Source: Escherichia coli (GTDB lineage Bacteria > Pseudomonadota > Gammaproteobacteria > Enterobacterales > Enterobacteriaceae). Taken from it: 64,000 nt of DNA. The DNA is taken from NCBI RefSeq assembly GCF_003334405.1, contig NZ_QOWM01000003.1; one strand, given 5' to 3'. Positions within the stretch are counted from its first letter, which is position 1. The number at the start of each line of letters is the position of its first letter. A program made the translations under genes and the position numbers. Shown piece by piece: positions 3,267 through 26,238 of the stretch. A model generated the notes under the pieces. It was not told the origin of the DNA and ran no database searches. It saw only the letters and a list, made by a program, of their open reading frames with translations.

Positions 3267-3908
3267 ATGTTTACGGGGATTGTACAGGGCACCGCAAAAC
3301 TGGTGTCGATTGACGAGAAACCAAATTTTCGTACGCATGTGGTGGAGTTACCCGACCACATGCTGGACGGCCTGGAAACCGGTGCTTCCGTGGCGCATAA
3401 CGGTTGCTGCCTGACCGTGACGGAAATTAACGGCAACCATGTCAGTTTTGACCTGATGAAAGAAACGTTACGCATTACCAATCTTGGCGATTTAAAAGTG
3501 GGGGATTGGGTAAACGTTGAGCGTGCGGCGAAATTCAGTGATGAAATTGGCGGACACTTAATGTCAGGTCATATTATGACCACTGCTGAAGTGGCGAAAA
3601 TATTAACCTCAGAAAATAATCGCCAGATCTGGTTTAAAGTCCAGGATAGTCAGTTGATGAAATATATTCTGTACAAAGGATTTATTGGCATCGACGGTAT
3701 TAGCCTGACCGTCGGCGAAGTCACGCCAACGCGTTTTTGCGTCCATTTAATTCCGGAAACACTGGAACGCACGACTCTTGGGAAGAAAAAACTTGGCGCA
3801 CGCGTCAACATTGAAATCGATCCACAAACTCAGGCAGTGGTAGATACGGTAGAACGTGTGCTGGCGGCACGAGAAAATGCCATGAATCAACCAGGCACAG
3901 AAGCCTGA
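3267..3908 (+). CDS. ribC: Riboflavin synthase alpha subunit, 213 aa
   Basis: [51 protein letters not shown]... shows the internally duplicated lumazine-binding fold typical of riboflavin synthase (ribC, also called ribE). Confidence 0.95.
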
Positions 3909-3914
3909 TCTGAA

Positions 3915-3937
3915 ATCGCCCCCGGAGAGGGGGCGAT
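3915..3937. terminator. Bidirectional terminator hairpin between convergent ribC and cfa
   Basis: ATCGCCCCC-GGAGA-GGGGGCGAT perfect GC-rich hairpin immediately after the ribC stop and before the cfa stop. Confidence 0.55.
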
Positions 3938-3947
3938 AGAATAGCCT

Positions 3948-5096
3948 TTAGCGAGCCACTCGAAGGCCGTTTTCAACACCGCGTGAGAACACGACCTGCC
4001 AGAGCTGAATATCACGGGCGCGGAAAGCACCTGCACAGGCATTCAGATAATAGGTAAACATTCGTTTAAAGCGTTCACTATAGTTATCCGCAATTTCTGG
4101 CCATGCGGCGAGGAATCGTTCATACCACGCCATCAACGTAGTATCGTAATCAGCACCGAAGTTATGCCAGTCTTCCATCACAAAGTGGGGTTCGCTGGAC
4201 TGAGCAATCTGGCGTACAGAGGGCAGGCAACCGTTCGGAAAAATATATTTATTAATCCAGGGATCAACATTCAGATCGGTTTTTTTCGAACCGATAGTAT
4301 GGAGCAGGAATATGCCTTCCGGTTTCAAATTACGATCCACCACCGCAAAATAGGTATCGTAATTTTTCGGTCCGACGTGCTCGAACATCCCCACAGAAAC
4401 AATACGATCAAACTGGTCGTTCAGGTCACGATAATCTTGCAGCAAAATGGTGACATCCAGGCCTTCACAGCGTTCCTGAGCCATTTTTTGCTGTTCGGCA
4501 GAAATGGTGACGCCCACCACGCTTACGTCATAATTAGATGCCATGTAGTGTGCCAGTCCGCCCCAGCCGCAGCCAATATCCAGTACGCGCATCCCTGGTT
4601 TTAACTGCAATTTTTCACAAATCATTTTGAGCTTCGCCTGCTGGGCAGATTCCAGATTATCGGCATCTTTCCAGTAAGCGCAGGAATATTGCATGAAGGG
4701 ATCAAGCATGCGGCTGAACAAGTCATTACCCAAATCGTAATGCTCTTTGCCGACTATCCAGGCACGTTTTTTACTCTGCAGATTGAAGAGACGAGCGCCG
4801 GCAATACGCAGCGTGTCTTTGAAATGATGGGGGAGTTGGTTCTCGAGACCTGCGCGTAAGACTTTGCTAAAAAACATATCCAGTCGGTCACATTCCCACC
4901 AGCCATCCATATAACTTTCGCCTAACCCCAAAGAGCCTTCTTGCAGAACGCGTTTAAAAAAATCGGGGTTTTTCACACGAATATCCGCCGGGGCAGAACC
5001 GTTAATGGCTATACCGGCACGGCTAAGTAATTCGTTGGCGATACGGTACCAGTTGTCATCCGGTACACTGACTTCTTCTATACACGATGAACTCAT
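3948..5096 (-). CDS. cfa: Cyclopropane-fatty-acyl-phospholipid synthase, 382 aa
   Basis: ORF carries the SAM-binding motif VLDIGCGWGGLA and is full length for Cfa. Confidence 0.96.
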   Translation of the reverse strand: MSSSCIEEVSVPDDNWYRIANELLSRAGIAINGSAPADIRVKNPDFFKRVLQEGSLGLGESYMDGWWECDRLDMFFSKVLRAGLENQLPHHFKDTLRIAGARLFNLQSKKRAWIVGKEHYDLGNDLFSRMLDPFMQYSCAYWKDADNLESAQQAKLKMICEKLQLKPGMRVLDIGCGWGGLAHYMASNYDVSVVGVTISAEQQKMAQERCEGLDVTILLQDYRDLNDQFDRIVSVGMFEHVGPKNYDTYFAVVDRNLKPEGIFLLHTIGSKKTDLNVDPWINKYIFPNGCLPSVRQIAQSSEPHFVMEDWHNFGADYDTTLMAWYERFLAAWPEIADNYSERFKRMFTYYLNACAGAFRARDIQLWQVVFSRGVENGLRVAR

Positions 5097-8665: not shown

Positions 8666-8709
8666 TCCATTTCACTCCAGACCCTAACTTCAGCTCCTGC
8701 AAAATCGCA

Positions 8710-8725
8710 AGGTAAACGTTTGCCT
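8710..8725. promoter_or_regulatory. PUR-box operator in the purR 5' leader (autoregulation site O1)
   Basis: AGGTAAACGTTTGCCT (revcomp AGGCAAACGTTTACCT) matches the PurR operator consensus aCGCAAACGTTTtCnT, about 45 bp upstream of the purR start. Confidence 0.7.
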
Positions 8726-8963
8726 TTACACACCTTACGCACAACAAAAGTGTTGCGGTACGCCGGAAAAACGACACGGAGCGTCAGGAAGGGGTCAATG
8801 GCCAGTACGCAAATAGTGTAAGCGTGGAATTTTGGCCGATCTTGACGAAAAGGGGAAGTGGTAAAAACACTTATCATTATAAATGACGGGAGATTTTTTC
8901 ATCACAGTGTGTAAAAATGCGTAATATCACTTTTTGTGTGGTAATAAAAAAGGAGAAAACTTG

Positions 8964-9053
8964 ATGAGCACCGACCTTAAATTTTCACTGGTAACAACGA
9001 TTATCGTCCTCGGTTTGATCGTAGCCGTGGGTTTGACTGCCGCGCTGCACTGA
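8964..9053 (+). CDS. ynhF: Small membrane protein YnhF, 29 aa
   Basis: ATG at 8964 preceded by the AGGAGA Shine-Dalgarno; translation MSTDLKFSLVTTIIVLGLIVAVGLTAALH is a single TM helix. Too short for the supplied ORF track. Confidence 0.8.
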   Translation: MSTDLKFSLVTTIIVLGLIVAVGLTAALH

Positions 9054-9218
9054 TTTCCTCTCGAGGGAGCGCGTTCTCCCTCGCATCTCCTTCCTGTTTG
9101 TTAGCAAAATGGCAAAAGTGTTTTCTCTTTTTGTTATTTTCATTTTTTTGTGATTGCTGTCATGCTTTCGCCACTTTAATGAATATCGCGTAATGACGCG
9201 AAGAGGTGGAGATAAGGC

Positions 9219-12828: not shown

Positions 12829-12878
12829 TCCGTCCTGCAATACTGACGGATGCGAACGGGCATCCGTCAGTCCTTTCT

Positions 12879-26192: not shown

Positions 26193-26238
26193 AATGAAGG
26201 GGGCGTGTGGTCAGTAACCTGACCACACGCAAACTTAT

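Follow-up and report, generated by a model that had tools for sequence, protein, structure and literature searches.

Overlapping bidirectional terminators are prevalent between convergent E. coli genes, are unlike intrinsic terminators in sequence, and are Rho-independent (Wang et al., bioRxiv 10.1101/2022.10.23.513370). For one such pair, ynaJ-uspE, a collision model has been demonstrated in single-molecule and bulk assays, and templates with one promoter gave only 9% and 39% release, far below convergent termination (Wang et al., bioRxiv 10.1101/2022.10.23.513370). According to the model for this class, an RNA polymerase trapped by the hairpin would obstruct the polymerase arriving from the opposite direction, and the collided complex would be dislodged by a third, trailing one. 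Cryo-EM and in vitro SEnd-seq indicate that the hairpin positions and stabilizes the head-on collided complexes (Watters et al. 2026).

The cfa-ribC pair is itself one of the published examples. Fig. S7A of the SEnd-seq preprint (Wang, Watters, Ju & Liu, bioRxiv 10.1101/2022.10.23.513370) presents it as a highly expressed convergent pair with an overlapping bidirectional terminator, and cfa has an apparent termination efficiency of 88% and ribC one of 92%, figures that, like all the 3'-end and efficiency data considered here, derive from steady-state RNA, in which termination at the hairpin is indistinguishable from trimming back to it. Our analysis of this locus in a window of 64,000 nucleotides of E. 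coli DNA indicates that the ribC-cfa hairpin is a real, conserved, ordinary, and efficient two-way 3'-end element that has already been published.

The hairpin between the ribC and cfa stop codons

The gene names ribE/ribC and cfa are the annotation in every E. coli genome match. The junction comprises the following features, in window coordinates.

3267-3908, plus strand: ribC (ribE) riboflavin synthase coding sequence, 213 aa, with a TGA stop codon at 3906-3908 (from the ORF list and E. coli annotation)
3948-5096, minus strand: cfa cyclopropane fatty acyl phospholipid synthase coding sequence, 382 aa, with its stop codon at 3948-3950 (from the ORF list and annotation)
3909-3947: convergent intergenic gap of 39 nt between the ribC and cfa stops (K-12 1742562-1742600)
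3915-3923: hairpin 5' arm, ATCGCCCCC as read on the plus strand, beginning 6 nt past the ribC stop and invariant in 12 Escherichia sequences
3924-3928: hairpin loop of 5 nt, GGAGA on the ribC strand and UCUCC on the cfa strand, variable within Escherichia
3929-3937: hairpin 3' arm, GGGGGCGAT as read on the plus strand, invariant in 12 Escherichia sequences

Written out, the junction reads GAAGCC TGA TCTGAA ATCGCCCCC GGAGA GGGGGCGAT AGAATAGCCT TTA GCG. The stem is a perfect 9 bp with 7 G-C pairs, the whole hairpin takes up 23 of the 39 nt of the gap, and on the minus strand the stem begins 10 nt past the cfa stop. The preliminary description of this junction had reported a stop-to-stop spacing of 39 bp and a single perfect hairpin with a GGAGA loop, both of which we recover; the span it assigned, 3911 to 3945, is somewhat wider than the hairpin and somewhat narrower than the gap. 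Its remark that there is no clean U-tract on either side likewise agrees with our counts: in the 8 nt past the last G-C pair, the cfa strand has 3 U (AUUUCAGA) and the ribC strand has 2 (AUAGAAUA). The hairpin therefore has the stem-loop of a canonical intrinsic terminator (a GC-rich stem of about 5 to 12 bp and a short loop) and falls short of the U-tract (about 5 or more U in 8 nt on each strand).

The isolated 39-mer is predicted to fold into this stem on both strands, with dG values of -19.7 and -18.2 kcal/mol (z = -2.8 to -3.7; 1 to 3 of 200 shuffles fold equally well), and when the gap was dinucleotide-shuffled 20,000 times, a perfect stem of at least 9 bp arose in 0.125% of the shuffles. 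Perfect stems of that size are found 32 times in the 64-kb window (counting overlapping variants, which reduce to about 18 palindromes), versus about 2 in shuffled windows. The comparative conservation described below is a stronger argument against chance than these shuffle statistics.

A rule-based consensus terminator scan made no call at the ribC-cfa hairpin, because it has no T-run, and called the hairpin at 1645-1670 between ydhQ and mdtK. The missing call is an effect of the scan rule, not of absent function. A scan of the whole window with Rfam covariance models returned nothing at 3909-3947 and matched only STnc550 and one tRNA. The first of these is a full-length match to the enterobacterial sRNA family at 8666-9056 on the plus strand (396 bits versus a gathering score of 48); the second, at 1-74 on the minus strand, corresponds to K-12 valV and is cut by the window start. 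A 51-aa open reading frame that runs across the hairpin (3887-4042, minus strand) was set aside as a mechanical, unsupported ORF that overlaps cfa and lies antisense to ribC.

Several other palindromes in the window may be mentioned. The convergent pair ydhQ (plus strand) and mdtK (minus strand) has one common hairpin, at 1645-1670 in a gap of about 40 bp (1639-1678), with T-runs on both sides; it is a canonical bidirectional intrinsic terminator and a useful local control for cfa-ribC. A window-wide hairpin scan also located long perfect palindromes at 43219-43250, 26203-26230, 12842-12871, and 49226-49256, with stems of 12 to 14 bp and loops of 4 to 8 nt.

Mapped 3' ends in K-12

Read in reverse orientation, K-12 MG1655 is collinear with the window, with 4 mismatches in 7.5 kb and complete identity over 3851-4000 (window position = 1,746,509 minus the K-12 coordinate), and the published MG1655 maps therefore apply base for base. 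They place the following transcript boundaries on the window.

3941, plus strand: ribC mRNA 3' end (K-12 1742568, minus strand), 4 nt past the stem, ...GGGGGCGAU-AGAA, from Term-seq
3912, minus strand: cfa mRNA 3' end (K-12 1742597, plus strand), 3 nt past the stem, ...GGGGGCGAU-UUC, from SMRT-Cappable-seq
3912-3941: region common to both mature transcripts, 30 nt, consisting of the hairpin and 3 to 4 nt on each side, from the two mapped 3' ends
5309, minus strand: cfa distal transcription start (K-12 1741200), source of the reads ending at the hairpin, from SMRT-Cappable-seq
3234, plus strand: ribC proximal transcription start (K-12 1743275), monocistronic ribC unit, from the SMRT-Cappable-seq operon table
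3053, plus strand: second, distal ribC transcription start (K-12 1743456), monocistronic ribC unit, from SMRT-Cappable-seq

For ribC, the Term-seq data set of Adams et al. (2021, eLife, PMC7815308, supplementary file 1) lists 1742568 on the minus strand as a "primary" 3' end, antisense to cfa, with average reads of 156,856 in LB at OD 0.4 and 55,748 in LB at OD 2.0; the coordinate is present three times in this file, which has three condition sheets, and these values are from the LB 0.4 and LB 2.0 rows. The adjacent mdtK 3' end is represented by 933 reads, versus 156,856 for ribC (Adams et al. 2021, PMC7815308). Because the same curated list includes no cfa 3' end here on the K-12 plus strand, the evidence for the cfa 3' end comes from SMRT-Cappable-seq together with the legend of the SEnd-seq figure. 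In the former (Yan et al. 2018, PMC6131387, Supplementary Data 1), a cfa transcript is reported from a start at 1741200 to a termination site at 1742597 (plus strand), labeled "novelTTS". Of the 156 reads that start at 1741200, 64 end at this site; another 10 stop less than 50 nt beyond it, and 5 continue for at least 50 nt, with a median cfa read-through of 40 nt (Yan et al. 2018, PMC6131387). The element sets 3' untranslated regions of 33 nt for ribC and 36 nt for cfa. Neither gene is among the entries in the TERMITe supplements, and a full-text literature search on a cfa and ribC terminator returned no paper.

In K-12, RNA 3' ends thus lie just past the stem on both strands, with little read-through in vivo. 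The preliminary description had suggested that the hairpin may act as a weak bidirectional terminator and had proposed 3'-end mapping across the region, which the published K-12 maps already supply for both strands. They uphold the notion of a two-way 3'-end element and contradict the qualification that it is weak, given the apparent efficiencies of 88% and 92%. The statement that it is not an efficient terminator is similarly hard to reconcile with 64 cfa reads ending at the site versus 5 passing it in SMRT-Cappable-seq and with the strong ribC peak in Term-seq, and read-through on both strands devoid of 3' ends at the hairpin is not what the published data show. A role as an mRNA-stabilizing 3' stem-loop, which the same description had offered as the other option, is possible for this hairpin, perhaps alongside termination.

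Some further ends and starts map close by. The mdtK 3' end at K-12 1744868 (window 1641) lies 4 nt past the stem of its own terminator, with the tail GUAUUUUUAC (Term-seq, Adams et al. 2021, PMC7815308). In the 5' leader of cfa, Term-seq places a 3' end at window 5250 on the minus strand (K-12 1741259), 154 nt upstream of the start codon, with a Rho score of 2.63 and within a Rho termination region; this end represents premature termination and is unrelated to the 3' hairpin. A bicyclomycin-sensitive region lies inside the cfa open reading frame at about 4863 (K-12 1741646). At the other end of ribC, the distal transcription start (window 3053) adjoins the mdtK start codon (window 3052), and the mdtK transcription start (K-12 1743375, window 3134) falls between the two ribC starts, giving divergent ribC and mdtK transcripts whose 5' ends overlap.

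Conservation of the stem and loss of the U-tracts

When 86 nt spanning the hairpin served as the query (sensitive mode) against complete E. coli genomes, the element was found at one place per genome in 5,426 of 5,426 (median 1). An alignment of 12 Escherichia sequences (eight E. coli alleles of 94 to 100% identity and a divergent one, together with an Escherichia sp., E. albertii, and E. whittamii) showed no variation in either 9-nt arm, and the loop occurred as GGAGA, GGAGC, GGAGT, AGAGC, GAAAT, or AAAAC. The hairpin is under selection, and the combination of invariant arms with a variable loop and flanks points to the stem, rather than the sequence as such, as what is being selected. Two specific roles considered for the element were discarded. 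A REP-like repeat is at odds with the single copy in 5,426 genomes and with the absence of the REP consensus, and a CsrA site, which the GGA in the ribC-strand loop might suggest, is at odds with a loop that is unconserved even within Escherichia; we found no paper tying ribC to CsrA CLIP data.

One flanking difference within the genus is an indel of 5 nt in the spacer that follows the ribC stop and precedes the stem (window 3909-3914). The additional nucleotides (AAATA, AGATG, or AAATG) are present in the divergent E. coli lineage, E. albertii, and E. whittamii and absent from the sampled K-12-type E. coli alleles, and the 5-nt deletion by the ribC stop shortens the U-rich tail of the cfa strand. 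The divergent E. coli lineage retains GCGAUUUUAUUU on the cfa side.

Across the Enterobacteriaceae, sampled with one genome per species, ribC was convergent directly downstream of cfa at 75 of 80 cfa loci. The gap measures 27 to 45 nt in most of these 75 species, and the short gaps are predicted to fold as a single GC-rich hairpin; when each was folded separately and free of any alignment, z was below -2 relative to its own shuffles in 66 of the 70 gaps of at most 70 nt (median z, -3.9). The stem sequence itself differs between genera: CGCCCCC/GGGGGCG in Escherichia, Citrobacter, and Salmonella, AACCCCGG/CCGGGGTT in Enterobacter, Lelliottia, and Kosakonia, and GCCTGCGCC/GGCGCAGGC in Kluyvera. 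In a sequence-based alignment across genera, five of six consensus pairs showed changes on both sides, a count that is indicative only since this alignment sets the Escherichia stem slightly out of register; the alignment-free folding per species is the sounder measure.

The flanks of the stem tell the genera apart. In Enterobacter, Klebsiella, Kosakonia, Lelliottia, Leclercia, and others, the stem sits between an A-tract and a T-tract, each strand typically has 6 to 7 U among the first 8 nt past it, and the stop codons often lie inside these tracts. From their sequences, the cfa-ribC gaps of all these genera would qualify as textbook bidirectional intrinsic terminators. The gap shrinks to 27 to 31 nt in Enterobacter, Lelliottia, and Kosakonia, with both stops within the A/T tracts (e.g., GC TAA AAAATAACCCCGGTTACCCGGGGTTATTTT TTA); that of Enterobacter cloacae reads AAAAATAACCCCGGTTACCCGGGGTTATTTT. 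In Escherichia, Citrobacter, and Salmonella, the tract on the ribC side is usually absent (mostly 0 to 3 U of 8) and that on the cfa side is usually retained, for example, as GGGGGUUUUUAUUUU in Salmonella. The allele of K-12 and the window has few U on either side (3/8 and 2/8). The hairpin of E. coli thus has the look of a still-working descendant, with eroded U-tracts, of an ancestral two-way intrinsic terminator.

Release mechanism and relation to known systems

Collision of RNA polymerases, weak intrinsic termination, and downstream termination followed by exonuclease trimming are the candidates for the release mechanism at ribC-cfa. We consider it rather probable, if well short of secure, that termination occurs at or near the hairpin with the assistance of collisions and that the hairpin doubles as a protective cap. 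The palindrome would then be a single-copy overlapping bidirectional terminator for ribC and cfa: each of the convergent transcripts would cross it, fold the identical 9-bp GC-rich hairpin, and end 3 to 4 nt past it, leaving the two with a 30-nt tail in common. Because the U-tracts are poor, the hairpin alone is probably weak as an intrinsic terminator and may only pause or trap RNA polymerase just past the stem. Release would be finished at or near the site, without Rho, after which a few nucleotides would be trimmed and the 3' hairpin would shield both mRNAs from 3'-5' exonucleases. The collision step is proposed here by analogy, the mechanism being carried over from ynaJ-uspE. The 3' ends at 3 to 4 nt past the stem imply some trimming; as a clue to mechanism, their position was discarded, given that the canonical mdtK terminator also ends at +4 in the same Term-seq data set.

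It is unlikely, in our estimate, that the hairpin is a protective 3' stem-loop only, although this is the alternative that fares best. Polymerases from each side would run into the partner's antisense strand and be released diffusely, through Rho or otherwise, and PNPase and RNase II would trim the transcripts back to the hairpin, which would stabilize both mRNAs. A precedent exists in the Rho-dependent transcripts that have a stable stem-loop without a U-rich tail and a precise 3' end formed by pnp- and rnb-dependent trimming (Dar & Sorek 2018). Ends that lie only 3 to 4 nt past the stem mean that some trimming must occur at ribC-cfa as well, and every efficiency figure comes from steady-state RNA. 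The evidence concerning Rho weighs on the other side. Neither strand has a bicyclomycin-sensitive region downstream of the hairpin in the published list, in which such regions inside cfa (plus strand) and antisense to ydhQ do appear (Adams et al. 2021, PMC7815308, supplementary file 2), and the SEnd-seq authors call the class Rho-independent. Rho normally requires more than 50 nt of untranslated RNA, compared with the 39 nt of the ribC-cfa gap, and cfa read-through, at a median of 40 nt, is short for Rho loading. Within 300 nt downstream in both directions, the C/G ratio stays near background (about 0.8 to 1.7, the background having its median at 1.0 and its 90th percentile at 1.53) and rises above the 90th percentile only in the most distal segments on the cfa side. 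Together, these observations favor local release at the hairpin, non-decisively, and Rho independence at ribC-cfa would be a class-level assignment that combines the statement on the class with absence from one list.

A plain noncanonical intrinsic terminator on each strand, for which the GC-rich hairpin, perhaps with NusA or NusG, would suffice without a U-tract, Rho, or convergent transcription, seems more doubtful still. Its predicted stem energy of about -18 to -20 kcal/mol is comparable to that of canonical terminators, the orthologous gaps of most genera resemble textbook bidirectional intrinsic terminators, the cfa strand retains 3 U past the stem (and one allele of the E. coli lineage has GCGAUUUUAUUU), and even the one-promoter ynaJ-uspE templates gave some release (9% and 39%). 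Against this, the ribC-strand tail AGAAUAGC offers 2 U in 8, the rule-based scan left the site uncalled, and one-directional termination at ynaJ-uspE was far weaker than convergent termination. The short spacers between the stops and the stem (6 and 10 nt) also argue against it. A ribosome terminating at the ribC or cfa stop would cover RNA 3' of its A site as far as the 5' arm of the hairpin. Cotranslational folding should be weaker in consequence, and the hairpin might form only after the ribosome has departed or when transcription outruns translation, which would further weaken a purely intrinsic mechanism.

Finally, it is scarcely credible that the palindrome is uninvolved in RNA 3'-end formation, whether as a product of chance or as an element acting at the level of DNA (a repeat of the REP type or a site for protein binding): the hairpin has no Rfam family match, and nothing points specifically to such a role, whereas the chance probability is about 0.1%, the element is single copy per genome without a REP consensus, its stem is invariant and its loop variable, a hairpin is kept with differing sequences across 75 species, and RNA 3' ends on both sides effectively refute the idea.

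Collision-assisted termination, the reading that we prefer, invites a bolder extension to which we attach little credence at present. With the loss of the U-tracts in Escherichia, Salmonella, and Citrobacter, 3'-end formation may have become partner dependent, each gene relying on transcription of its convergent partner, such that cfa and ribC tune each other and the erosion of the ribC-side tract in this clade amounts to a natural switch from intrinsic to collision-based termination. If so, cfa, transcribed in response to stress, and ribC, transcribed as a housekeeping gene, would each adjust the other's read-through, its burden of antisense RNA, and the stability of its mRNA.

Beyond correct annotation, the finding matters little. 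The element keeps ribC and cfa transcription from running antisense into one another, and its added value is comparative: a gap that is predicted to be a textbook two-way intrinsic terminator in many Enterobacteriaceae versus a U-poor E. coli hairpin that is reportedly about 90% efficient. This contrast provides a convenient natural pair for weighing the contributions of U-tracts, RNA polymerase collisions, and exonuclease trimming to 3'-end formation.

Among the known systems with which the ribC-cfa element can be compared are REP elements, which can act as both terminators and stabilizers in 3' untranslated regions, including those between convergent genes (Harris et al. 2026 preprint). It shares with them the character of an extragenic palindrome able to limit read-through and protect mRNA and differs in occurring once per genome and lacking the REP consensus; a true REP gap, at about 54900-55125 in the window, is quite different. 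There, the convergent open reading frames 53635-54900 (plus strand) and 55126-56634 (minus strand) have one hairpin per gene together with REPs, versus the single common hairpin of cfa-ribC, and the two hairpins (54906-54933 and 55085-55116) are near-identical and terminator-like (AACGCCGGAGAG...CTCCGGCGTT) and flank REP-like sequence. With the protective stem-loops of Dar and Sorek (2018), the ribC-cfa hairpin has in common a stable stem-loop, without a U-rich tail, directly before a precise steady-state 3' end; the differences are that no downstream Rho region is reported here, that there is no clear enrichment of C over G, and that the SEnd-seq authors assign this site to a class that they describe as Rho-independent.

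Canonical bidirectional intrinsic terminators, represented by ydhQ/mdtK and by the cfa-ribC gaps of Enterobacter, Klebsiella, Kosakonia, and Lelliottia, share with the E. coli element a convergent gap of short length, occupied by one GC-rich hairpin of comparable energy, with 3' ends directly beyond the stem on both strands, but the relatives typically carry 6 to 7 U of 8 on both sides, compared with 3 and 2 of 8 at ribC-cfa. The closest match is with the overlapping bidirectional terminators of the SEnd-seq class (Ju et al. 2019; Wang et al. 2022; Watters et al. 2026). The single-molecule, bulk, and cryo-EM collision tests for this class concern ynaJ-uspE rather than ribC-cfa. In anatomy, there is no difference: the ribC-cfa element has the same location between convergent genes, one stem-loop serving both strands, transcripts that overlap across the hairpin, no canonical U-tracts, and a high apparent efficiency, and the pair is named as an example of the class.
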